This document shows, in pieces, positions 8,664 through 48,943 of a stretch of 64,000 bases of DNA. A program made the position numbers and the translations under genes. This DNA is from Marsupella aquatica. Its lineage: Eukaryota > Plantae > Marchantiophyta. The number at the start of each line of letters is the position of its first letter. Within the stretch, counting starts at the first letter, position 1. Below the pieces are notes generated by a model. It did no database searches. It was given only the letters and a program-made list of their open reading frames with translations, and had not been told where the DNA came from. The DNA lies in NCBI GenBank assembly GCA_973895155.1, contig OZ316895.1, positions 9,784,184 through 9,848,183 of the forward strand, read 5' to 3'.

Positions 8664-8990
8664 GTCGCCATGGAGTCATGGACGGCTATCTCAATCAATG
8701 GAGGAGCTCCCTTCGAGACCGGCCTGCTGTTCAGCTCGCCGGCTATGGCGATCAATGGGATCTATGGTTTGTTTATATATCCCATTATGTCATTGCCATG
8801 GACGGCCATCTCAAACAAGGAGTAGCTCTTTGAGACTTTTGTGATGTTTGGCTCGCCGACTATGGCGAGCTGTGGGATCTATGGGAGCTCTGGTTTTTCG
8901 ATGTATCTCAAAGAAAGGAGGAGCTCCCCTTGAGACCGCGATGTCGTTTGGGTGGCCGGCGATGGCTCGCTATGAGAGCTATGGTTTGGC
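8664..8990 (+). repeat. Three tandem 100-120 bp units, each self-complementary
   Basis: Unit pattern GCCATGG...ATCTCAA...GGAGGAGCTCCC...GAGAC...GCTCGC...CTATGGCGA, with ATCTCAA at about 8688, 8808 and 8905. In unit 1, GTCGCCATGG (8664) pairs with CTATGGCGAT (8743-8752). Confidence 0.75.
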
Positions 8991-9030
8991 GATATTGCTG
9001 TGCACATTTGAAATGTTGTTGTCGATGATG

Positions 9031-9262
9031 GTGTGCGCAGATGCGGAGTGAATCGGAGCTTTGGGTTGTTGATAGTGTGCGCAGGTCGGGAGAGTCTCGG
9101 AGCTTTGGTATGTTGTTGGTAGTGTGCGCAGATCGGGAGAATCTTGGAGCTTTTGTATGGTGCTTTGTTTTTGTTGTTGGTGTGTGCAGATCTGGAGTGA
9201 ATCGGAGGTTTGGTATGGTGCTGATTGTGTGCGCACAGATCAGGGAGAGTCTCGGAGCTTTG
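9031..9262 (+). repeat. Five-copy 45-58 bp minisatellite (GTGTGCGCAGAT...CGGAGCTTT)
   Basis: Copies start near 9031, 9075, 9122, 9180 and 9227. Confidence 0.85.
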
Positions 9263-9852
9263 CAAGGTCGGATCCTTCGCCAAGGGTTAGCTATCTGCTG
9301 TAAGCCACTCCCAGTCTACGATCTGGATTGTTGTCTGCAGATCGGTAGTGTGTTGGAGATCGATTGATACATGGTCGATCTGACGCTGATCTAAACGGAT
9401 TCTGTTGCTTTAGGCGAAGTATAGGGTGATCGAGTGGATCCGAGATTGATCCGATCTCCACTTTTACTCAGAGATCTGCCAGCTTGATATGTGAGGTAAT
9501 GTCTGGAATTTCTCACGAGAGGACAGCGTTTCCTTTGCGTGCCTTGGTATGACGGTATGGTATGGCAGTTCGAGGCGGTTTTGAAGTGATTTGCAGTCTT
9601 CCTTTCAGAGCCGTAGACTAGGGTGGGTTTCCGATAGGTTGTGCAACTGAATGATCTACTGAACTCTTCTGGCGCAATGGTCGATCGAGCGAGGAGTTTC
9701 TCTATCTCTTTCTCTATCTATCTGAAGAGTTTGAACTGAGAGCTCGTTGAGTCGTATTTCGAACAGATGTGGTGACATCCAACTCAAAACAAACCCTCTA
9801 GCGATAAGGTGTTGGAAGTTGATTCCAGTTTCCTCGTCGTTCTGACGGTCTG

Positions 9853-9953
9853 TGAAGTTGAACTGATGTTTCCAGGTGACGGAAGATCTGCATGAGATCA
9901 AAAGGCACCGAATCTTACAACAGATCTTACGTCACCTGGGAGAAGTCACTTCA
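9853..9953 (+). ncRNA. pre-miRNA-like stem-loop
   Basis: 9869-9890 TTTCCAGGTGACGGAAGATCTG pairs with 9921-9942 CAGATCTTACGTCACCTGGGAG (one mismatch, two G:U on +). The stem extends inward (TGAGAT/ATCTTA) and outward (TGAAGT/ACTTCA). Confidence 0.6.
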
Positions 9954-10018
9954 GCGTGATTGTCTAACTATTTCTCCCCACTCTTATCACGAACTGGGTC
10001 TTACCTGTTCTGTGAGAT

Positions 10019-10355
10019 CGGTGGCTAGACCCTTGGCTCCCGGAAGGGTTTCCCGGAGTTCGAGTTGTTGATGAAATCTTGGAGTTCGGAGTGGATGCAT
10101 CTTAGAGAACTTGTTGAGCGACTCAGTTATTGAAGCCACATCCCTCAGTGGCTCCGGTCTATCCAGGATCTGGAAGGATGCCCACGAGAGACCTGGAGAT
10201 CAGAGAGAGATTAAGCCTTGGATTTACACCCACATCACCCGTTTGGCCAGAGACTTGCAGGATGGCTAGTGCTTTGAGACTTCTACTCAGTTTCATCCAC
10301 TCCGCTCGCTCATATTCTGAGCCAGATCAGAAATTTTGTTAAAGGGCTAGTACTG
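10019..10355 (+). ncRNA. Long imperfect foldback, candidate small-RNA precursor
   Basis: CGGAGTGGATG (about 10087) is the reverse complement of CATCCACTCCG (about 10294). CGGTGGCTAGACCCTT pairs with AAGGGCTAGTACTG at the base, and further partial pairing is seen inside. Confidence 0.4.
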
Positions 10356-10649
10356 GGCGTGAGCGCTGAACTTTCTACGGTGGATTCTCTTTGGATGACT
10401 TCTATATTTGGATGGACTTGCGTGTCTGCCTTAGGCGTCTCCTCGAAGAGAAACCCGTGTTTATGGAGACTTTCTTTGATGGAAGGCTTTCGTCGGCTAA
10501 CAGTTTTGTGCTGCAGATCCTTGTCAAATTTATGTCTCACAGGGCCTGGGACGATTTATTATTGTGAACATGATTGTTGTGAAATGCTAAGTCCTGCTGC
10601 ACGCGAGGTCCGCATGATTTGACTCAAGTCAGGCGATCTTTGCAGGCGG

Positions 10650-11275
10650 TATGGCCTCTCAAGAAGTCGAAGGCTTCCGGGTTGTCCCGCAGAGCTGGAG
10701 TAGCAATGTCCAAAAGATCAGAACAGAAGCTAACAGGATGGGGAGCTGTCCAGATTCTCGGTATGTGTGGTATAGTCAAAGCTACCCTGGCAGAATTTAT
10801 TTCAAACAAAATTAGGCTCGGTTAGGTTAGGTTCATATCAATCCTTCGAATCTGGCTTGGCCCTTGTTTTTCGAGGGTAGTCTTGCCTACTCCACCCAGT
10901 GTCAATTTCACTTGATGACTTCGTATTGGAGTTGTAAGATTCTTGGGATGGGTGGCGTGAGCAAGGACACCTGGGAAAGACCAACACTTCTGTATTCTAG
11001 CCTACCCAGAGTAAATACTCACTGTTCATAATCTGGTTAAACTCTTGCTATTCCAGTGTAGTCTTGCCTACCTCACCCTTCCGATATACAAAGATGGGTC
11101 CAATTAACGGCTTAGAATTTGCAGTTGGCTTAGTAGCACTTTTTTGCCATGGTCGTCTTCCCTATTCCACCCATACCGACGAACGCTGATACTCCCACCT
11201 GGCGGCTGGCTCGTCGTCTTTCCGTGGAGCTGTTGCCCTGTTGCAGGAAGGCTGCCTCTTCTCCGATAAGAGGGA
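10650..11275 (+). ncRNA. Nested foldback carrying three miR482/2118-like guide arms
   Basis: Outer stem: 10740-10796 pairs with 11140-11197, extending loosely to about 10650/11275. Inner hairpin 10925-11105. Antisense P-loop 22-mers lie at 10881-10902 (TCTTGCCTACTCCACCCAGTGT), 11062-11083 (TCTTGCCTACCTCACCCTTCCG) and 11156-11177 (TCTTCCCTATTCCACCCATACC). Confidence 0.7.
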
Positions 11276-11285
11276 GACAGGTTCA

Positions 11286-11460
11286 GGAGCTCATGATTTT
11301 CGGTATGTGTGGTGTAGGCAAGGTGACCCTTGCAAAACCAATTTCGACCAAATACAGACTCACACAAGCGCAGCTAAAATTTTGGAAGATTTGGTGAAGC
11401 ATTTGTTTTGCAAGGGTGGTCTTGCCTATAGCGCCCCTACCGATGAAGGAAGATAAGCTT
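11286..11460 (+). ncRNA. miR482/2118-like pre-miRNA hairpin
   Basis: The 5' arm 11300-11353 pairs with the 3' arm 11389-11443. The 38-bp core has 4 G:U pairs and 4 mismatches on the + strand. The 3' arm carries TCTTGCCTATAGCGCCCCTACC (11420-11441), and its reverse complement encodes IGRGAIGKTTLAKQ. Confidence 0.75.
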
Positions 11461-11981
11461 CTGCAAATTTGGAGCGAGCGGACTGCTGTTCGGCTGCTGT
11501 TCCCTTTGTGCAAAGTCCCCGTTTGTTAATTGTCTTGTTCGCCTGGTGACCACTTCGTAGCTCGCGTATATAACAGTTTTGGGGTACAGGTGAAATGAGT
11601 AGGTTGTACTTTACTTTCAATTTCCATATGGACAATACAGGAAGAACGTACTATTGTTGAAGTTACCAAAAAATAATAGCTAGTTGGAAATGCTACCGAG
11701 TGAAACCCTTGTAGCACAACTTGACGAAGCGTCAACTTAACTGACAGCCCGGTCCTACTGAAGATTGTAATTTCTACAATTGAGAAATTTCATTTACTTC
11801 ATCTCTCTTCATCAGTTTGGGGATTCTCCTGTGCTCTCTTATTCCTAAGTAATGGTAGGTATGTCAAATGTGAGTGCCAAATCGTTCAGGGTTTTGTACT
11901 TGTAACTAAATGTATGGTGATGTTTATGAACTTCTGATTACATTGTGGTAGCAACTACTCAACATAGCGACACTTCTGATG

Positions 11982-12067
11982 GCGAACCTAACCAGGGGAA
12001 TATTCTTGTGGCCTATTTTCTGCCGTTGCGAACTGAACCAGGGGAATATTCATGTGGCCTATTTTCT
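11982..12067. repeat. 46-bp tandem duplication
   Basis: AACCAGGGGAATATTC(T/A)TGTGGCCTATTTTCT at 11990 and 12036. Confidence 0.9.
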
Positions 12068-13278
12068 TCTCAAGTATCCTGTGGAGCCCGAAGTCACCGT
12101 TAGAAAGGTGGACTGTTACGTGTTCGCCTTGCAATGATCCCGCATGAAAACAATCTACGCGGAATTTTGCACTCAACGTGAGTTTTCCGTCCCCAGCCAT
12201 TTCCTTCGAGCTTGTTGGCAAGCTTGATAGTCCAGTCAATTCTTGCCGAATGTGCCAAATAAAGATATCACCTTGCTGGTGCTCGTGTCGGCTTAGAAAT
12301 ACATGCCCAGTGTAACCCTATGGACTTCATAAACTCCAGCAAAACGACTGCTTTTGTTTGCCGTGGACACCTGTGGACTGGTCTAAACTCCAGCAAAATG
12401 TATGCTTTTGTTTGCCATGGACTCTTTCAAAGCTGCTTGAATAATGGCCCTGCAAGTTAATCAAAGTCACTAACTTGAGCAAAACGAAGTTAAAGCCAAT
12501 GAAATATCCCACTTACAAAGAGCCTTTTTAAGGACGTGAATGGCCAGGCTAACAGAAAAAGGACGAGGACTGGCCTAAGACTCATAATTTTTTTTGTCAA
12601 TCACGTATGGAACAGATCTTTGATTAATGCTCCAAATCAGAGTATTAATCAAAGTATTTAAAGTACTCAGTATTATCTCGACTTCCAAGCGCCATACTTG
12701 TTAATCGTCCTGATTTTGGCCAATGTAGACACCAGCATTGTCGCAATATCCTTCACGCTGCAAAAATAAATTAATGTGAGAACATTTGGGTATTCACTTT
12801 GAGTGAATCCAATGGATTTCCATTGAGCTTATTCCATCGGGGTTTTTACATTGAAATCCCTGTGCTACAGTGTTTTGAGCACGCGTGGAAGTTAACCTAG
12901 CAAAATTATGGTTCCTGAGGTTTCGCTTCTACACTACGTAATTCTCAATCAAATTGATTTGGGAGGGGCACTCAGTCAACGCTTCGTTTTCTTCAAATTA
13001 CGTTGTCTTCTAGAAAGTGTTAATGAACGTGAAGGCTTGTGTTCTTGTTAATGGAATTTGGCACAAAACGTTCGAGAGTGATTATTGGAATGATCAGAAT
13101 GTATTCTTCGTCACACAACGAGCAGGTGGAATAATGAGCAGCCCAATCATTTCCTCCAGATTTTGTAGCTTCCGTAGAAACGTTTTCGTATATGACGAGG
13201 AACAATCCTGAAATCCAACTTTAGAAGTAGTAGCATAGCTGAAGAATTGATCTTCAACTGGAGACCATCGTCACAAGA

Positions 13279-14739
13279 CTAAATCTCAACAAGTTCAATT
13301 GCAAACCTTTTGACTTGCTTCCGGTCCAAACATTGAATATGTCGTGATCTTCGAGACTCCTCTCGGGGAAGCAGATGCCCGTGTAACGAGCTAAAAACAC
13401 GAATTAGCTGAGAGTTGGAATCTTCGATGTGGTTGTTTGTTCCGAAGTAGTTCATCAATCTTGCTCTAGATTCCGTCTCTTGAATGTCTTTCCACAAGGT
13501 CATAACGGGAGTTGATAAATCATCAACTTGGCTCGCCACACTATTGTCGTTTTCTTCACTTGTGGGCACTCGTTGCACATGGGTTGGATCCTGAGCTGAG
13601 CATTTGTCATTCAATTTGTTGCGAAAATAGGTGAGAATTGGCACCAAGTTTGTCTCAAACTCCCCTGAAGTAGTGCTGAGCTGCTGGTCCGTCGCCGTGA
13701 TGTGCTTATGTTGTCGTGCTTCACCTGCTACTTCACCCATCCACTGCCAGAAATTCCGTTCTTGGTGATTGCATTCCACTAGCTCTTTGATCATGCACTT
13801 TGCCATCTCTAGAGTCCTCAGGTATTTCTCTAGAGTTTTCTGGTGCTCTAATAGAAGCAATTCAAATGGGCTGAATGGGTGGCCTTCGGGGCCTCTCACA
13901 TTCTCTAGAAGCTGCATCTGATTCAGTTCATGACTCCGCTTGGTCTTACAAGATATAAGAGCATATAGGGACCTCAAGGTCATCCCTAAACGACCACACA
14001 TCATGAGAAGCTGGTCACTTTGTGCTTTGACTTTGGCTCGACTACTCTCACCCAAGCTATTGGATGTTGCGATCACTTTTGCCACGTACTGGCTAGCCTC
14101 TACCATTGCTTCTCTTCCCCTCTCCATAGCTGAGGCATCCAAGAAAGTGTTAGTTATCACAGGTGTATTTCCCAAAAACGAACCAAAACGTATCTCCAGG
14201 GCACGAGAAAAGACATCAGTGTGGCAAATGAGCCATCCCATAGCCAGCAAGAGATGCCTACTCTCACTGCTTTCATTGTTCAGACCAAATAACGGAGAAT
14301 TGGGAGCATAGCCCCACAAGGCCAGATAAAATTTCACAAAGCAGAGTCGTTCTTCCTGAGAGGTACTACTGGCGTCAGGCATGGGCATCACATCAAGATA
14401 ATCCATTGCCAAGGGACCTTGAATGATGTTCCCAGAGCAGTGATGCTTGTTGTCACGGCCAAATTCTCCATCTCCTACAAAAGAGTAAGCGGCAATCTGA
14501 CCATTGTTGTACTGATCCTTCTTTGCAGATACTGAGTGAGGAGGGGGATTGCTTGGAGGCCGAGCCAAGGCTAGGTGGAAGACAACCAGATCTGACAGCA
14601 ATGAGAGGACAGAGAGTGTAGCTGACGGATCATTGTCAGCTGCAAGAAGAAGATGGTGGGCAGGGCAAGGTTTGATACCAAGAGTGTAAAGAAGGGAGTT
14701 CAGGTAGCTCAGAGAGGAAGATAGACTCTTACCCACCAT
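13279..14739 (-). CDS. TEDC1: Tubulin epsilon and delta complex protein 1 (TEDC1/C14orf80)-like
   Basis: Long ORF from ATG 14739. The motif FVKFYLALWGY...SESRHLLLAMGWLI and a later coiled-coil with FWQWM match TEDC1 as I recall it. The 3' end is uncertain: an acceptor near 13210 precedes a frame reading DCSSSYTKTFLRKLQNLEEMIGLLIIPP, so a further exon down to about 13095 is possible. Confidence 0.65.
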   Translation of the reverse strand: MVGKSLSSSLSYLNSLLYTLGIKPCPAHHLLLAADNDPSATLSVLSLLSDLVVFHLALARPPSNPPPHSVSAKKDQYNNGQIAAYSFVGDGEFGRDNKHHCSGNIIQGPLAMDYLDVMPMPDASSTSQEERLCFVKFYLALWGYAPNSPLFGLNNESSESRHLLLAMGWLICHTDVFSRALEIRFGSFLGNTPVITNTFLDASAMERGREAMVEASQYVAKVIATSNSLGESSRAKVKAQSDQLLMMCGRLGMTLRSLYALISCKTKRSHELNQMQLLENVRGPEGHPFSPFELLLLEHQKTLEKYLRTLEMAKCMIKELVECNHQERNFWQWMGEVAGEARQHKHITATDQQLSTTSGEFETNLVPILTYFRNKLNDKCSAQDPTHVQRVPTSEENDNSVASQVDDLSTPVMTLWKDIQETESRARLMNYFGTNNHIEDSNSQLIRVFSSLHGHLLPREESRRSRHIQCLDRKQVKRFAIELVEI

Positions 14740-17377
14740 TATGTATGATGAACACAAAAGCACAGGAAAAATAGGTCCTAACTCAGAGAACCGACATCTA
14801 TACTGAAGTTTGTGAGAGAAGAGATATCCAGATCCTACACCCTAAAAATCTAAACAGTCCCCAAGAATGCGCGTAAGTGAAGTGATTGCAAGTGGATTTT
14901 GTGGATGTCGTGAGTGATGTGGGTCATACGGGAGGTCGACAATTCTGGTGACAAAGTGAATATGCTTGTGTGGTGAAGCGTATGCTGAGTATCAAGTCAC
15001 TATGGCTCATTTGAAATGAAATCTTCACTACTTTCAAAAATGGACGACACAGTTTTGGTAAATAGAGGCCTATGATTAGTGGGTGTACAACCTTAAATAC
15101 ATTGCATAGCCAATCCCACTGCCAATCATTTTTTGACTTGAATACCAGGCCCGTGAATGAGGGGGGCGGTCACAAAGGCTGAACTACATTACACTACTTC
15201 TAGTTGTTTGAAGAAAACTATTACTCTAAGTGTCAAAACCATGTTTGAGATATGCCCAATGTCATTTTTCAGTTATTCTTGAAATACCAATAGTTTCTTG
15301 GAATTGAGTTGACAAGATGGGTGGATCATGGAAGAGGAATACCTCTGTCTCCAAGGACTGACTGGTTACTTGCATCGTTACATGTGTCATGTCAAGTCAC
15401 TCCCAAGCAATGTGTTTGTGGTTCACTATGCTCTTGGGCCAAATTGGCCAATTCAAGAGTGATACTGGGTGACCTCACCCCTGGAAAAAGCAAAAGTTTT
15501 TACCTGAGGCACTTTAGTCTCTTTAGTACTCTGAGACCACTAAGCAAACACTGTAATAATTCTTTTCACTACCATGTAAGCAATTAGCAAGTAAGGATGC
15601 CAAAGTGGATGCCATCATGGATTACCTTCTTCAAGGTACAGTACCCAAACTGCACTCAACTATGCAAAAACTAATACACAGTTGCATGATTTTGGCCACC
15701 CTGGAACAATAGAGTGAAGTTGAACCCAACTCTGCGTTTAAATTGTTAGCAGGAACCTAGGCTCCCTCACGATTTCCTACCCACAAAATGGTTATTAATT
15801 TTCTTGCATAAAATCCTCAAGTTAGAAGTTACAATTTGAACCCTAGACCACACCCATGTACGTTAGTTGCACCACAACATTGAGGTAGAGGTTAGAGCCT
15901 TAGATAAATATGTTAGAAGGTTAACGAATCTTCTTGTTTAATCTTCCACCAAATTCTCAATTTTATATATTTCAATTCAAACTTATGCTATTGCAAGTAT
16001 CATGCAAATATGACGTCAATAAATATTATTTACCTTGCATTCATTATGGTTTTTCCAAACAAACTAAATGAATGATAAACAATTTCTTATATTTTTTCCT
16101 CATAGTTCGTATATTTTTTCTAGCAGAAAAATAATGACATTTGGTATGCTCTTACATAGATAAGGATAATTTCTCTATCATAGGTATTTGCAACAAAATT
16201 TTAAGAATAATCTATCATAGAAGCCTAAATCCAATTTTGCTATTACACAAGAGGTGGACTCAAAAATACATTTGCATACCAAATCATAAATTTTTTAAAG
16301 AATTTTTAGAAAATCCTAAGTCAAGATTCATTGAGGTAACTTGACTTCTTGGTCTAAACACTCAATCCAGCCACACTCATCCATAACCATCCATAACCAA
16401 CAAGAAACTCACATTGGTGACATATGTGAATATATTTGATATTTACTCTTAATTTTCACTTCATCCTATTGTGACCAAACCCTCTTTGATCACAGGCTTG
16501 GTTAATGTAATACCTAATCTATGTTACTCTTGTGCTTACCTTAATTAAAAGCACCTAACCCCAAATCTTATATAATCTTGCCATTAATTACCTAGTTAAT
16601 GTCACACTTACCTTATGCTAATTTTTTCACTACTCAAATTAAAAACACACCTAACTCAAATCTTATACAGCAGCAGACTTGATTAGAAGAAACATCCTTT
16701 TAAATTTTTTTACTCATATTTAGTTCATGCACATTCCTATTTACATTGTTGTCGAGAAGCAAGGACTAAATTAAAACATAAAATAGTACTTGGATATTTC
16801 TGTCCACAAAGTATATTGTAGTAACCAAATTCAACTTTTAAATATGTTTTTGTAATTACAAACATGACACAACTTTATATATAGTTCCGCTTGTTACTTT
16901 GGTATTAATATATAGTCATCCATATGGCCATTTCTATGAATAAAAAAAATAGTGACACGAGTGTCAATTAAAATATATTCTAGTGCATATATAATTTTAA
17001 TTGATCATTGACACGAAATTTATCAACTGTATTACTCCTTCCTATAGCACTTTTGACTTAGTACTTCGATCCATTCTCCCAATAGAGTTAAACATTTAAA
17101 AGATTAAACTTTAAATAGATTAAAGTTTGCTTAATGGAAAAATACTAAATGAACTTATTTCTCATATATATATAATTTAATGTTCACAAACTCCGAGAAA
17201 AGACGCAAACGGCACAATGACTCATAATCCGGGATAATTCACACCAAAGGGACCGAATAAGCTCAATTTTCACAAATGAAATAAAGTATTATTAAAATAA
17301 TTCGCAAATTTTACACACTTTCTTGAGATTCAGAAGAGATACTTCGCAACATTATCCTACAATTTCAGAAAATGTTG

Positions 17378-18497: not shown

Positions 18498-22514
<4,017 letters not shown>

Positions 22515-26226: not shown

Positions 26227-27227
26227 CTAGCTCAATACCCGTGCGTTGCACAAAAGAAGTAGTGTCGGCCAAGATGTCGTTGAGAAAAAAAGATGTCAAG
26301 TCGGCCAAGAGGTCGTTGAGAGAAAAGATGTCTTGTCGGGTGAGATGTCGTTGAGAAAAAAGATGTCATGTTGGCAAAGACATCGTCGAGGGAAAAGATG
26401 TCATCTCAGCCAAGACATCATTGAGGGAAAATACCTGTGCGTTGCACAAAAGATGTCGTTAAGAAAAAAGATGTTGCCCAAAATGTCGTTAAACTAAGCA
26501 TGTTGTGGTGCCCAAGATATTGTTAAGAAAACAGATGTTGTGTCCCCCAAGATGTCGCTAAGAGAAAAGTGTTGTGGCGCCCAAAATGCTCTTAAGAGAA
26601 AATATGTTGTGTTTCCCAAGAATGATATTCTTATGTGAAAGATGTCATGAAGTAAAACGATGTTGTTAAGAAAATAAGTCATTTTACCAAAGATGGCATG
26701 TTGCCAAAAGGTCATCAAGTAAAAAATTGTCGTCAAGTAAATAGATGTCATGTCGCCAATGATGTCGTTATGCCAAAGATGTTGTTAAGTATTAAGATGT
26801 TGTTAAGTACAAAATGGTCAATAGATAAAGTATGTCATTAGTCAAAGATGTTGTGAAGTAAAAGATGTTGTTAAGTACATCTTGGGCTTGATACCTGTGC
26901 ATTGCACAAATTATGCATGTTGAGGTGAGAAAATATGTCAAGGTGAAAAAAGATGTTGATGAGAGAAAAACATTTTGAGCTGAGAAAAATATGTCAAGGA
27001 GAGAAAAGATGGCAAGATGAGAAAAAGATGTCGATTAGAGAAAAAGACATATGTGGAGGTGAGAAAAGATCTTGAGGTGAGGAAAATATGTCAAGATGAG
27101 CAAAGATCTTGAGGTGAGAAGATCTTCATATGAAAAAAAAATGTCAAGACGAGAAAATATGTTCTATATATTTTATTTATATTCAAAATCTATTTCAAAA
27201 AAATAGAATTATCTATATATGAATAGA
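26227..27227 (-). mobile_element. Non-autonomous Helitron (about 1.0 kb) filled with a degenerate ~19-bp AAAGATGTCGTTGAG repeat
   Basis: On the minus strand the 5' end is TCTATTCATATATAGA (27227) and the 3' end is GTGCAACGCACGGGTATTGAGCTAG (hairpin followed by CTAG, ending 26227). It is inserted between A and T with no TSD. Internal copies of the 3' motif lie near 26430 and 26890. Confidence 0.7.
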
Positions 27228-42462: not shown

Positions 42463-44264
42463 GGACTCAGCCAGCGGAGCCAAGAAGAAATGAGAGAATA
42501 GACCATGGAAGATTGTATCTCGGGATGTCAAAGAAATGTCACAAGTGATGATGGCGATCGAATGAAGTGTGGATTTCATTTGATTTCCTTTTCTTTGTCA
42601 GCAACCGCAGCTATAGACCATCTATCATAGGCGCAGCGAGAAAAAGGCCTTCTACGATCCATGCCTTGTGCGAGGAGATAATAGGGACATCGAGACTCGC
42701 GAGCAGAAACGAAACAGAGAAAAGATTGAAAGGAGAATGGACTTTATAACTTATGGACGAATCATAAGGAACATCGTGTAGGCCATAAGATTTATCTTTT
42801 TTTTTCGAAAATCGAAAGGATAGGGGGCGATGAATGCCCGATGTTGTCCGAAAGAAAATTCCGAGAGGGCCAGAAAGAAGGCCGAAGCGAGACGACACGA
42901 GTAGACCCCGAAAAGTGATCGAAAAAAGGAAAGGAGCGAAAAGAGCATAAGAGAAGCGCGAAGGAGATCGGGAATGAAGGAGCAAGCCGCAGCGAGGGAT
43001 CGCCCACCATAAGGCAGCAAAAGGTCGAAAGCAAAGAGAAATCTCTCCAAGAATCTCTGGCTGTACAACAGAAGCAGTAGAGGCGAAAGAGAGATTGAGG
43101 CGCAATCTGAAATTACCACGATTTCAAGGCCGAGCCATGACGGAACGATCTCATAAGGACATCGAAGATCACTTAAGGAGGCAGAAGAGCAGAGCCTAGA
43201 CATAAACGGCAGCCCCCTGGAATTGCAAGTCGAAAACTGAAGGCAGAAATGGAGAGACGGACTTAAGATCGCACACAGCAGAAGGAAGATTAAGAGCGAG
43301 CGAGTATTACAGCATTTAAGAGAGCAGGAGCTACCCAGGATCTGGAGTGTAAGACCAGATGTATTCGAGGATGAATGAAAGACGCCAACGGAGGATTGAC
43401 TGAGATCCCAACCAACGGAGCGCAGGACATGACAAATAGACATGGCGAAATGAGCAATCGAGAGGAGAATTAATGACGATGAGAACAGAAGAGAAGAAGA
43501 AGACATCGATAATCTCATAAGGATCAAAGAAAGCAGGCAGCATCACGACCCCATAAAGACAGGCTGAGCGGAACAATTGAGAGAATCCACAAGAGCAGCG
43601 AAGCAGGAAAAGTGAGAGACGAGAATTCATAAGGACACCGATCCGGACTCATTGGAGGAGAATCGAGAGAGATCGGAAAGTAGCAGCATTCAAGATACTC
43701 ACGACTGCGATAAGAGATTGGAAAAAGAAGCCCGAAAGAAGAGAGTCACAAGTTGAAGCAACTGAGAATAGAGACCCCGGGTGGAAACGACACCTGAAGG
43801 TTGTGCGAGGAGGCACACCAGGAAAGCGCAACATCAGACCACAAAACATCGAGGAAATGTCGAGTCCGATCGAAAAATGCTAAGTGCACGCTCCATAACC
43901 GCACATAACCGCAAAACCCTCGTTAATTGCAACATTCGTCAAAGAGATTTGATTTACAAAGCCGAAAGTGCACTTAACCAAGTCACGAGTAGATACAACC
44001 CATAATTGCAACCCTAAGTGCACAACCGGATAACTGCATAGTTTAACAAAGAAAAGAGCACCTACAAAGGAAAATTTGCAGTTAACCAAATACCAAAGAA
44101 AACCTAAACCATAAGCGCAAACCCTAAAAAGGAATTTCGGATTTGCATGCTCTCTCCACCCAGCTTCACTTTGCATGCCGCAGAAATGTGCTTTGTCATT
44201 CCTTACTATACTTACTAGTATATAAACCTCAACCACACTTAAAAGGAATCAAGCCATCACCCCG

Positions 44265-47200
44265 ATGACCAACCTCGAGAAACTCAACTTTCCAGCCCTA
44301 GACATCGATGGTAGTAACTACCTGGAATGGTCAATGAATCTCAGAGAGAACCTTACCTCGCTAACCCTACTCCCAGCTATAGGGATGGCTCAACCTATAC
44401 TAGCTGGCGAACCCCAACCAGACCCGTTAACTAAAGCCAACGAATCTAAGGCCCTTGTATTCCTTAGACGCCATATCCATAGATTCCTCCAAAGACAATA
44501 CATGCACCTTTCGACTCCTCGCGAACTATGGACAGCGCTCCAGACCCGATTCGACCACCAGAAACTGGTCGAATTACCAAGAGCCAGGCAAGACTGGCTC
44601 AACCTGCGGGTCCAGGACTTTACTTCAATCTCAGCCTACAATAGCGAACTCTTTAGAATAACCTCAACCCTCGCACTATGTGGCGAGCCGGTCACAGACA
44701 AGGATCTGCTAGAGAAGACCTTGTCGACATTTCATTCATCGAATGTGTGGCTATCCACACAGTATCGAAACATGAAGTTCGGGCAATACTCTGAGCTCAT
44801 AGCCCACCTTCTAGTCACAGAGAGAAACCAAGAACTTCTTTTAGTTAACTCTAGAAACGTCCTGCGGGCACACTGCCCTCAGGACAAGAGAATGAAACCC
44901 ACAACATAGAAAATGCTGAACCCTCCACATCGAGGCAAAGCACTAAACGCACTAAGAATAGCAACCGTAGAAACACCCACAACAGGGGGAGTTTCTATAA
45001 CCAACGTCCACCATATAACCCCCAACAAACCTTTCGAGGACGTGGAGGACGTGGTGGACGAGAAGAACAAGGAGGACGAGGAGGACGTGGCAGACGTGGC
45101 GGACGCGGAGGACGCGGCGGCGGTAGAACATATAACAATGATCGCCGAAATGATTGGTCACAATCCCGACAACAACGGGAACGCCCGAAATGCCATGCAT
45201 GTGGCATGACAAACCACCTAGCCAGAAACTGTAGAATCCCGCAACATCTTAAAGAACTATATCAACGGTTCCTCCAGGATGGACAAACCTCAAGGGCACC
45301 ACCCCGTGAAACCCACGGGGCGTTTATGGAGTCTAGTGACCCATTCCAAGACTTTTCAGACCTACCCGCCCAACCCGAGGCACACTTAGTGGCAAGTAGC
45401 TCCACTACACCAGATTTAAATAGTCCAAGCACATGTATTATTGACAATGCGACCACGCATACTATCCTCAGGGATAGGCACCTTTTCCACAAGATTACAC
45501 CCTCACGTAGATCCCTAACCACTATCAATGGCCCTAGCCAAATAGAAGAGGGCTTCGGCCCAGCTTCCATTAGACTCCTGCAGGGCACAGCAATCCACAT
45601 AGAATCTGCTATTTTCGCCCCAAACGCAACCCATAATCTCCTCAGTTTTAGAGATATACGAGCAAACGAACTACATGTCCAGACGGGCGATACCACAGAC
45701 CAGGAAGTGATACACTTGGTTGAAAATACCCCTAGTACGGGGAAAATCATTAAAGAAACATTTTTCTCGTATCCTTGCGGGTTCTATGTAACTCATATTG
45801 AATGCCTGCATAACAATGCTCAAACAAGTGAATTGCCCGCGCTCTGGCATGCACGCCTCGGCCACCCCGGCCAATCAATGCTAAGCAAAATCATTAAGAA
45901 TTCAAGTGGCATTCCAATCAATACACGCCACACTCCAGCGAGCACTCCATGCACTGCATGCTCACGTGGAAAATTAATAACAAGGCCCACGGCATCAAAA
46001 TTGCCAACCAACATACCCAAATTCTTGGAAATAATCCATGCAGATGTTTGCGGGCCAATTAACCCACCAAGCGGACCTTTCCGCTACTTTATGGTATTAA
46101 TCGACGCATCAACTAAATGGTCAAATGTGACCCTGCTTTCAACGAGGAACATGGTTATGCCTCGCATTTTGGCGCAAATCCTGCGCGTGAAAGCACAATT
46201 CCCAGACCACCCCATTAAGACACTAAGAGTGGACAATGCAGGGGAATTTACATCCGAAACATTTGACGACTTTTGCACATCACTTGGCATAGACGTACAA
46301 TATCCTGTACCTCACGTGCATTTTCAGAACGGATTAGCTGAAGCGGTCATTAAACACCTTCAGTTAATCGCACGCTCACTACTAATGCAATCGAAACTTC
46401 CAGTCTCAGCATGGGGACATGCCATATTACAGGCTAATGCATTAATTCAATACCGCCCATCGGCTTTTAATACCTATAGCCCATATCAAATTGCCAATGG
46501 TATAAAACTTGACTTATCCCACCTTCGTTCATTTGGATGTCAAGTAATGGTCCCCATTACTCCATCCAAATGAACCAAGATGGGACCCCAACGACAGTTG
46601 GGGATATACATCGGATTCGACTCACCGTCCATAATCCGATATATGGAACCTACAACTGGCGATATTTTTAAATCTAGATTCATCGATTGTCATTTCGATG
46701 AACATGTTTATCCACCGTTAGTAACCCCTGAACACCCACAACCACCTTTGGAGTGGGAAAGACATTCACCATTTTGGCAAGACCTTAGAACCAATCAAGG
46801 GGAGAAAGAAGTTCAGCGAATTTTGCAACTCCACAAGATTGTGGAAGAACTTCCAGACGCTTTTGTCGATACATCACAAGTTATCCGCTCACATATTCCA
46901 GCTGCGAGAGCATCTGCTCGCATCGAATTATCAAGTGAGCCAGCAAACACATCCCAGCCACATGCCAAACGTGGCAGACCCTTGGGATCAAAGGATAAAC
47001 AACCAAGAAGGCATGGTTCATCTATACCACCTTCACCTGATGTCGATCATACCAAACCTACATCTCATGAAGAGATCTCTATCCACTACGCACACACAGG
47101 TGCAATGTGGGATAGAAATACTACTTCAATAGATGATGCTTTTGCATTAATGGTGGCAACACATATCACTGACGATACACCCGAACCAATATCTATCTTA

Positions 47201-48943
47201 GAATGCCAAAACAGACCAGATTGGCCTGAATGGCAAAAAGCTATAAATGGAGAATTAGATTCCCTACTCAGCAGACACACTTTTGGCCCAGTCGAGCCAA
47301 CACCACAAGACGTACACCTAATTGGCTACAAGTGGACATTTGTTCGCAAAAGAAATGATAAAGGCCAAGTTGTACGCTATAAAGCACGTCTGGTAGGGAA
47401 AGGATTTACCCAACAACCGGGAATTCATTACGATGAAACTTACTCACCGGTTATGGATAGCACAACATTCCGATATCTTATCGGATTTGCCATTTTTCAC
47501 CAACTACAAATGCGACAATTAGATGTTGCAACTGCATATTTATATGGCACTCTAGACACTTGTCTATACATGCGATCACCTCCCGAGTTGGAGCAACGTC
47601 GCCGAGCTTTAGCTCAAGGCGCTAAATCGCATATCCCATATCTACATAAGATTATAACACAATTATCTCAAGTTACACCTCATGTGTCATCTACACATGT
47701 AACTCATAATAACGACACCGCTGTGTCAAACATACGGAATACTCGCCGCGGACTAGCTATCCGTGTGTTGAAGGCACTCTATGGCCTGAAACAAAGTGGC
47801 AGAGTATGGTATCAAAGATTTACTGATGAAATGATTGCCATGGGTTTTTCTCATGATGCCATTACACCATGTTTATTTATTAAACATGTGAATGATAAAT
47901 ACGTCATCGTTTCCATTTATGTTGATGACTTAAATATATTTGGGACACCCCAACTTACAGAAGATACTATTACCAGTCTTAAATCAACATTTGAGATGAA
48001 AGACCTTGGACATACAAACTTTTGCTTAGGATTACAACTGGAGATCTTACCTACTGGTATGATACTCCATCAAACTACACAAACTGAAAAGATCCTAAAA
48101 CAATTCAATATGAACCTAGCACACCCATTGACATCACCTATGATTGTACGTTCATTAGAAAACACCACTGATATTTTTCGCAAGCGCGAAGAACATGAAC
48201 CCATATTAGGACCAGAAACTCCATATCTTTCTGCAATAGGAGCATTAATGTACCTAGCAAATCAGACTAGACCAGACATTGCATTTGCAGTTAACTTACT
48301 AGCTAGACATAGTGCAACTCCCACAGCCAGACACTGGAACGGAGTTAAGCACGTATTTAGGTATCTCCGTGGCACCACCGATATAGGATTATTTTACCCA
48401 TTCGGTGCAAACCACGAACTCATCGGATACGCGGATGCCGGATATCTTTCCGACACTGATACCGCAAAATCCCAAACTGGATATGTCTTTACCATAGGGG
48501 GTATCGCTTTTTCTTGGAAAAGCGTGAAACAGACCCTAACAGCAACCTCATCGAATCACTCAGAAATCTTAACTCTACATGAGGCTAGTCGTGAAGCCGT
48601 TTGGTTACGATCCTTTATAAACCACATCAACACCAAATGCGGCCTACCACCACTAACGAAGCCTACTAACATTTTTGAGGATAACGCAGCATGTATACAG
48701 CAGATCACGAAAGGATTCATCAAAGGCGATCGCGTGAAGCATATAGCTCCAAAGTTTTTCTACACCCACGAATTACATGGAAAAGAGATCAACATTTTAC
48801 AAATTTCAAGTGCAGACAACTGTGCAGATCTCTTCACCAAATCACTACCACCATTAGTTCATCACCGACACTGCCAGGGGATTGGACTGCGGAGCGTGCG
48901 ACGCATGATGACCGTGGAAGCTGCTACTCCACATGACGATTGA
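44265..48943 (+). pseudogene. Disrupted gag-pol polyprotein of the copia element
   Basis: Gag (ALDIDGSNYLEW) shifts frame at about 44853 into an RGG-rich linker and zinc knuckle CHACGMTNHLARNC. Then protease IIDNATTHTIL, integrase WHARLGHP, HADVCGP, VDNAGEF and QNGLAE, an in-frame TGA at 46571-46573, RT LYGLKQSGR and YVDD, and RNase H YADAGY, EDNAAC and ADLFTK. Confidence 0.93.

Follow-up and report, generated by a model that had tools for sequence, protein, structure and literature searches.

A candidate polycistronic MIRNA cluster antisense to the NLR P-loop in a leafy liverwort

Does a bryophyte carry a MIRNA cluster of its own that silences NLR genes at the P-loop? The question is raised by a segment of about 700 nt in the 64-kb window (the whole stretch of DNA analysed here), for which a sequence-only reading had proposed a multi-guide NLR-silencing pri-miRNA. 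Reviews up to 2025 trace NLR-targeting miRNAs, notably miR482/2118, back to the emergence of the seed plants (PMC6523410, PMC4651229, PMC12069490) and describe the miR482/2118 family as restricted to seed plants (PMC6523410, PMC6132428, PMC12069490, PMC4651229). NLR phasiRNAs are reported for seed plants, and in Physcomitrella genic PHAS loci were not reported (PMC4457045, PMC7111516). On the evidence presented here, we hold with moderate confidence that the locus is a precise polycistronic NLR-silencing MIRNA cluster that arose independently in a bryophyte.

Between 10754 and 11447, the NB-ARC P-loop segment occurs three times in sense and four times in antisense orientation, in copies of about 45–60 nt each that are arranged as SA (sense), AS1 (antisense), SB (sense), AS2 and AS3 (both antisense), SC (sense) and AS4 (antisense) (Table 1). 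The earlier count of seven segments in both orientations was thus confirmed, all arms being present with the translations given for them. The three units align colinearly with 66 invariant columns out of 180, in agreement with blastn self-hits, and by their sequence are tandem duplicates. They share one strand and lie within 700 nt, the arrangement looked for in a polycistronic MIRNA, and we infer that all of them belong to a single pri-miRNA. SA and SC are likely the star (5p) arms of units 1 and 3, and SB is likely the star arm of unit 2.

Table 1. Coordinates of the cluster, its units, arms and main predicted foldback in the window
Feature	Position	Strand	Remarks
Whole cluster	10740–11450	+	three tandem sense+antisense units and orphan AS3
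Unit 1 (SA+AS1)	10740–10910	+	about 165 nt
Unit 2 (SB+AS2)	10925–11092	+	about 165 nt
Unit 3 (SC+AS4)	11282–11450	+	about 165 nt
SA, sense arm	10754–10813	+	K codon 10778; degenerate P-loop and next helix
AS1, antisense arm	10849–10902	+	candidate guide, U-initiated 22-mer 10881–10902
SB, sense arm	10939–10983	+	K codon 10963; most degenerate of the arms
AS2, antisense arm	11030–11083	+	candidate guide, U-initiated 22-mer 11062–11083
AS3, orphan antisense arm	11140–11183	+	candidate guide, U-initiated 22-mer 11156–11177; own star arm absent
SC, sense arm	11296–11355	+	K codon 11320; NB-ARC E 1.2e-3
AS4, antisense arm	11388–11447	+	candidate guide, U-initiated 22-mer 11420–11441; NB-ARC E 9e-3
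SC/AS4 foldback (C-4)	11300–11443	+	predicted 48-bp helix, −63.3 kcal/mol, z −6.3, MFE = centroid

The identity of the arms was examined with a PSSM built from the P-loops of NB-ARC proteins (85 segments). In all six frames of the window, ranks 1–6 were taken by six of the seven arms, SA giving the second-best NB-ARC score and SB falling outside the 14 best, in a control that is not fully independent because the proteins had been retrieved with a profile of six arms. Pfam returned NB-ARC as the best family in four of the six arms scanned (E from 1.8e-4, the value for AS3, to 0.1, none of them reaching the curated cut-off). The arm-profile search gave 56 matches, mostly to proteins with repeated P-loops; nine of the ten named ones were angiosperm proteins, NLR-type by name or by P-loop motif, and one was a mussel repeat protein. 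At the sequence level this search confirms the NB-ARC identity and cannot name the donor clade. A protein-coding NLR was rejected, the arms being short, lying on both strands and containing stops.

The sequence-only reading had further described the antisense arms as intact and the sense arms as degraded. The contrast is borne out in the core of five codons (G, G, K, T and T), which are altered in 0/20 antisense vs. 7/15 sense cases (Fisher p 0.001), but not over all seven conserved motif codons (4/28 vs. 7/21, p 0.17), the arms not being independent in either test. Over eight codons, the variable columns at codon positions 1, 2 and 3 numbered 2, 1 and 6 in the four antisense arms and 4, 3 and 5 in the three sense arms; bias towards the third position is described as characteristic of P-loop miRNAs (PMC5026261). 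Read on the target strand, AS2 has a stop codon behind KTTLE and lacks one base upstream of the motif, and the AS4 guide is complementary to a G-R-G-A-I-G-K variant. Non-synonymous P-loop variants in AS2 and AS4 may represent decay.

The seed-free host that had been presumed was borne out by the PABP phylogeny, which points to a leafy liverwort, and TEDC1 identity agrees. The PABP exon at 20688–21350 is 96.8% identical to that of Calypogeia fissa, 90.5% to Marchantia, 83–88% to mosses and 74–80% to seed plants. In a tree of the window sequence with 24 named proteins, picked among the 120 matches listed, the window sequence is sister to C. fissa (support 100/97). The TEDC1 open reading frame is 71% identical to that of C. 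fissa, and by these sequences the host is a relative of C. fissa among the leafy liverworts, though not that species. For both the PABP and the TEDC1 matches in C. fissa, the longest contig given measures 4,399,463 nt, a hint that the two genes are linked there. The TEDC1 gene of the window (13279–14841, minus strand) is encoded in one long open frame (520 aa; Pfam PF14970); TEDC1 is centriole-related and expected in a plant with flagellated sperm. A seed-plant host or contamination was rejected: a single 6917-nt contig of run X1 spans both the cluster and TEDC1 and shows no difference from the window, and 30/30 bins are covered by X3 and X4, runs from a second organism (B) and a second study, so that the locus is not a contaminant, although X1 may be the source of the window and is then not independent of it. 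In run X2, depth was zero in 4/30 bins, two of them inside the cluster; such holes prove nothing.

Each antisense arm holds a U-initiated 22-mer (Table 1). The shared register of the 5′ U, to which weight had been given, was indeed found in 4/4 antisense arms, but it follows automatically from the Lys-Thr codons, and it was rejected as evidence of processing since the K-T-T codons dictate U; a second U three bases upstream in all four arms has the same cause. The guides were compared by eye with the miRBase 18 sequences that PMC3475693 lists in its supplement, a comparison valid only if the miR482 register is processed. The AS3 guide is identical to pab-miR482b at 20/22 positions, the AS1 guide to ghr-miR482b at 18/22 (its first 18 nt), and the AS2 guide to ghr-miR482b at 17/22, the AS4 guide being more divergent. 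The miR482-type sequence that the sequence-only reading had cited was thereby confirmed. To judge from the codons, the miR482 likeness, 5′ U included, is forced by the G-K-T-T of the target.

The same likeness might be taken for descent, the locus being a true MIR482/2118 orthologue that goes back to the ancestor of land plants and was lost from, or overlooked in, Marchantia and Physcomitrium. Besides the 17–20/22 identities to miRBase miR482, the shared register and the 3′-arm position in the tandem units would agree with this, as would reads from seed-free vascular plants: in Table S3 of PMC5569507, miR482-named reads (up to 64,487) occur in 13/25 species, namely 12/21 ferns and 1/4 lycophytes. 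We nevertheless consider this orthology quite improbable, since the identity is dictated by the target codons and the stems keep an NB-ARC coding similarity that is described as absent from old MIR482 loci (PMC5026261). Moreover, no MIR482/MIR2118-named model is among the eight Rfam matches to E 10, and the four guide motifs are absent from two of the three supplement files of the Marchantia degradome paper. That paper names three LRR-gene targets, with no NBS and no miR482 among them.

Two origins had been offered, an old lineage or a convergent one; similarity to NB-ARC coding sequence persists in the stems outside the duplex and speaks for the convergent origin. The 11 codons that follow GKTT score as NB-ARC in 6/7 arms when ranked by PSSM as a share of window positions (SA top 0.002%, AS4 0.012%, SC 0.4%, AS1 and AS2 1%, AS3 3%, SB none), the first of these codons lying in the paired upper stem. 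In this part, 5/21 arm pairs share 17–19/27 nt (chance about 1e-4 per pair). NLR similarity outside the miRNA/miRNA* region was thus found in these six arms and in a 16-nt extension at guide 3; in published work, extended similarity of this kind marks a MIRNA as recently derived through inverted duplication, and several separate origins are reported for P-loop miRNAs (both PMC5026261, PMC4651229). The cluster probably arose when part of a liverwort NLR was duplicated in inverted orientation, independently of seed-plant MIR482. Upstream of AS3, at 11190–11260 on the minus strand, a weak NB-ARC-like translation with short blastp alignments hints that the NLR fragment behind AS3 was longer than those behind the other arms.

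Which strand would be transcribed? The both-strand folding check proposed earlier, run on 10600–11500, favoured the plus strand (z −3.8 vs. −1.7 on the minus strand, 20 shuffles each). Among single hairpins, the plus strand was better in 4/5 cases, and C-4 and 3-C folded on the minus strand too (z −5.0 and −4.1). The three tandem stems contain 13 G:U vs. 5 A·C oppositions (one-sided p 0.048), an excess which likewise favours the plus strand. A functional minus-strand RNA would be either a non-coding transcript or a long 3′ extension of TEDC1, which ends at 13279 on that strand, 1.8 kb away; its four GKTT sites, sense in this orientation, would serve as a decoy or a TAS/PHAS-like target, and the two minus-strand folds would agree with it. 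We find this very improbable, since three inverted arms would be left unexplained, an external trigger miRNA would be needed, and both the overall folding and the G:U bias speak for the other strand.

On the plus strand of the window, the SC/AS4 foldback is the longest predicted helix (200-nt tiles), and its duplex is ungapped with three unpaired positions; when MFEI was scanned in sliding windows of a fixed 160 nt, the cluster was not among the best 15. The AS1/SB and SA/AS1 foldbacks gave z of about −3.3 each, AS1 pairing better with SB (three unpaired duplex positions) than with SA (6–7). The SB/AS2 hairpin (B-2) is weak on the plus strand (z −1.7, with shuffles as good in 11/200), and SB is able to pair with AS1, AS2 or AS3. 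The global fold consists of SA/AS3, AS1/SB and SC/AS4, with AS2 unpaired with any arm, and a folding span of 300 nt gives SA/AS1, SB/AS3 and SC/AS4. Such a switch of partners with the folding span could, in these models, blur processing. The notion of four equivalent hairpins was not supported: four guide arms share three star arms, and the AS1/SA duplex is poorly matched.

The criteria for MIRNA annotation (10.1101/213314) call for a foldback below 300 nt and a duplex without large internal loops, with at most five mismatched and at most three asymmetric positions, as well as miRNA and miRNA* reads, precise processing and replicated sRNA-seq. The predicted foldbacks 1-B, A-1, B-2, 3-C and C-4 span 124–206 nt and lie within the size limit, and the SA/AS3 pairing of the global fold, of about 420 nt, would exceed it. 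In the miR482 register, 6/7 tested pairings have 3–5 unpaired positions, AS1/SA alone exceeding the limit of five. By these criteria, the predicted structures make the locus a provisional MIRNA. In all 12 guide/star combinations, U1 of the guide pairs with G and guide position 11 is mismatched. Rfam gave no matches at the gathering score in the 64 kb; below it, MIR4416 (E 9.5e-4) and MIR6024 (E 0.75) aligned at SC/AS4. A star-gap-guide pattern had three matches in the window vs. none in shuffles, a circular result as the pattern was derived from those three. Its matches in metagenomes were rejected as chance in 3/3 cases, being GC-rich (60–63%) contigs with bacterial-looking long frames and no arm cluster.

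The best-paired 19-nt windows of SC/AS4, with one unpaired position, lie 8–15 nt upstream of the miR482 register, where the weak MIR6024 alignment is also found. This would fit a proto-MIRNA or hairpin-siRNA locus which is transcribed and silences NLRs but is diced imprecisely or stepwise (DCL4/DCL1), yielding several antisense small RNAs per arm of about 40 nt in miR482-like and miR6024-like registers. The alternative partners of the arms, together with pairing and an NLR match that extend over 38–48 nt, would be explained as well, and such intermediates are described in the literature (PMC5026261, PMC4651229). On the other hand, the stems are short and imperfect, the U1:G pair and the position-11 mismatch are common to all combinations, and similarity ends near the duplex ends without long NLR tracts. 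We therefore judge imprecise dicing unlikely, and a cluster with precise processing remains our preferred explanation.

The guide length of 22 nt that had been assumed, and phasiRNA triggering with it, found no support in the structure. All pairings are ungapped, without an asymmetric bulge, so that the structure does not predict 22 nt; 22-nt miR482 is described as a product of asymmetric duplexes (PMC3877274), and DCL2 is reported as absent from bryophytes (PMC5569507, PMC10721683). By these models, guides of 21 nt are more likely.

As for targets, the claim that the guides are aimed at the NLR P-loop found support for AS3. A search of the whole run X1 at 85% likeness returned two records, a contig like the source and a 2866-nt contig that matches 11140–11177 with three differences (35/38 nt). 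On its coding strand, read by eye, the match is preceded by V-L-G-I-V and followed by V-F-E-N-I-S-P-Q-F, as in NB-ARC segments; X3 and X4 contain the downstream flank too, and the NB-ARC-type match extends beyond guide 3 by 16 nt on its 5′ side. Host DNA thus offers guide 3 a predicted site with at most three mismatches. The complementarity between AS3 and this NLR-type sequence, 38 nt, is more than one guide requires. An NLR-type match was seen for 1/4 guides, by a method that cannot show 21-nt sites.

Divergence in organism B was estimated from assembled contigs, apparently of two haplotypes, in which collapsed bubbles may understate differences; the contigs were chosen among 26 displayed of 240 pieces, and the variants displayed were 40/230 substitutions and 12/34 indels. 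Over 11133–11458, the 3′ half of the cluster, 6/326 sites differ in X3 and five in X4, vs. 28/336 (18/226 + 10/110) in a nearby intergenic contig (p 1.4e-4). TEDC1 coding DNA differs at 16/474 sites, a rate from which that of the cluster does not depart significantly (p 0.27). The six differences avoid the AS3, SC and AS4 stems (0/126 vs. 6/200 elsewhere; p 0.05 one-sided, 0.09 two-sided). In the 5′ half, the contigs of X3 and X4 skip 11003–11052, a 50-nt loop replacement in unit 2, and there are 1-nt insertions at 10824 and 10935. One X4 contig has a 1-nt insertion behind 11077, inside candidate guide 2, which by our reading restores the frame of the motif's upstream glycine; the AS2 allele of the window may be the derived one. 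Over 9600–15000, X3 and X4 show two haplotype classes, one nearly identical to the window and the other diverged by up to 8–10% in intergenic DNA, a pattern that, by sequence, is as in a hybrid or allopolyploid.

These structural changes in unit 2, taken with the stop codon and one-base loss of AS2, the degenerate SB and the one failing duplex, would suit a relic without function, in which an NLR fragment, duplicated both in inverted orientation and in tandem, has decayed and is never, or no longer, diced. We give this little credit: divergence in organism B is low with three stems free of changes, the unit loops have diverged while the arms were kept, the third-position bias is found in the antisense arms only, and the G:U bias is confined to one strand.

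Taken together, the plus-strand foldbacks that are predicted, the miR482-like arms antisense to the P-loop, the one NLR-type match and the reduced divergence lend partial support to the proposed multi-guide NLR-silencing pri-miRNA. Most probably, inverted duplication of a liverwort NLR fragment would have produced one hairpin, which tandem duplication tripled, AS3 probably being added or refreshed later from an NLR; the miR482 likeness would then be convergence imposed by the same target codons. A Pol II transcript on the plus strand would run across the units, DCL1 would excise duplexes of about 21 nt, AGO1 would take up the antisense strands that begin with U, and the guides would slice the host's own NLR mRNAs at the P-loop, the processing and slicing steps being those we infer from established plant miRNA biology. 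The four guide variants could cover different NLR subsets and so limit autoimmunity. Liverwort NLR domains are described to arrest growth when activated (PMC11218826), which provides a reason for a brake.

In its predicted working, the cluster resembles miR482/miR2118 of seed plants (antisense to the NB-ARC P-loop, shared register, 17–20/22 nt, 3′-arm guides, third-codon variation), but family membership is not established. It differs in its liverwort host, the lack of the asymmetric bulge described for miR482 (PMC3877274), NB-ARC coding similarity in the stems and more guides than stars, and it is known from DNA alone. Inverted NLR duplication, similarity beyond the duplex and P-loop convergence are described for MIR472, MIR1510, MIR2089, MIR6024/6026 and spruce MIR482q-s (PMC5026261, PMC4651229), all from seed plants, whereas the liverwort locus has three tandem units and an orphan arm in 700 nt. 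Tandem-duplicated P-loop hairpins on one transcript are described for Populus MIR482-MIR1448 and Panax ginseng MIR482a-MIR2118 (PMC3475693, PMC3433442); these have two hairpins each and are supported by expression, while the liverwort locus, seen as DNA, has four guide arms, three star arms and alternative pairings.

Nor is a seed-free host by itself new, as had been supposed, since ferns already have miR482-named candidates in the supplement of PMC5569507 (You et al. 2017). Like the cluster, these are small RNAs antisense to the P-loop, from seed-free plants and in many variants: supplement file 4 contains P-loop-antisense sequences, with 31 entries for D. esculentum, and by Tables S3 and S5 and file 4 the miR482-like reads of D. 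chinense and D. esculentum are abundant and highly diversified. The fern candidates differ in coming from vascular plants and in having been called by homology from reads, and it is by reads, not precursors, that they can be likened to the cluster. The main text of PMC5569507 has no match to '482', and later reviews are silent on the fern reads. No NLR P-loop miRNA of a bryophyte was found in the open full-text literature, in the parts that were searchable; subscription papers, miRBase, PmiREN or bioRxiv supplements could hold one. In the literature searched, a bryophyte NLR-silencing MIRNA cluster thus appears to be unreported, convergent P-loop miRNAs and polycistrons being already known.

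If the cluster works, the braking of NLRs by P-loop miRNAs extends across the split between bryophytes and tracheophytes, and the same guide is either reinvented wherever NLR families expand or far older than thought. A bolder version, to which we assign a low probability, is that P-loop miRNA control of NLRs is as old as land plants, with the liverwort cluster, ferns and seed plants sharing one miR482 lineage, refreshed by repeated capture of NLR fragments in a refolding polycistron whose three star arms serve four guide arms. With four defined guides, an NLR match in the host and a lineage reported to be without DCL2, the locus offers a test of NLR phasiRNA amplification without the 22-nt machinery. 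It also suggests that small-RNA immunity is perhaps under-reported in the model bryophytes Marchantia and Physcomitrium.

Several other features of the window were observed. At 9864–9948 on the plus strand, 0.8 kb upstream of the cluster, there is a compact MIRNA-like hairpin (−39.7 kcal/mol, z −6.4, MFE = centroid), with no Rfam match and no P-loop similarity, which by its predicted fold could be a further cistron of the cluster transcript. Further upstream, three direct repeats of about 90 nt, 75–79% alike (8677–8988), are followed by a 47-nt tandem array (9026–9262) and, at 9494, by a donor-like AG/GTAATG; the region 8677–9494 is possibly the 5′ part of a plus-strand transcription unit. Dense, G-skewed tandem repeat arrays with periods of 17–56 nt occupy 26252–27162, and Copia-type retroelement ORFs with gag-pre-integrase and integrase lie at 44226–48943 on both strands, a gag-like ORF being listed at minus-strand coordinates 44226–44909.
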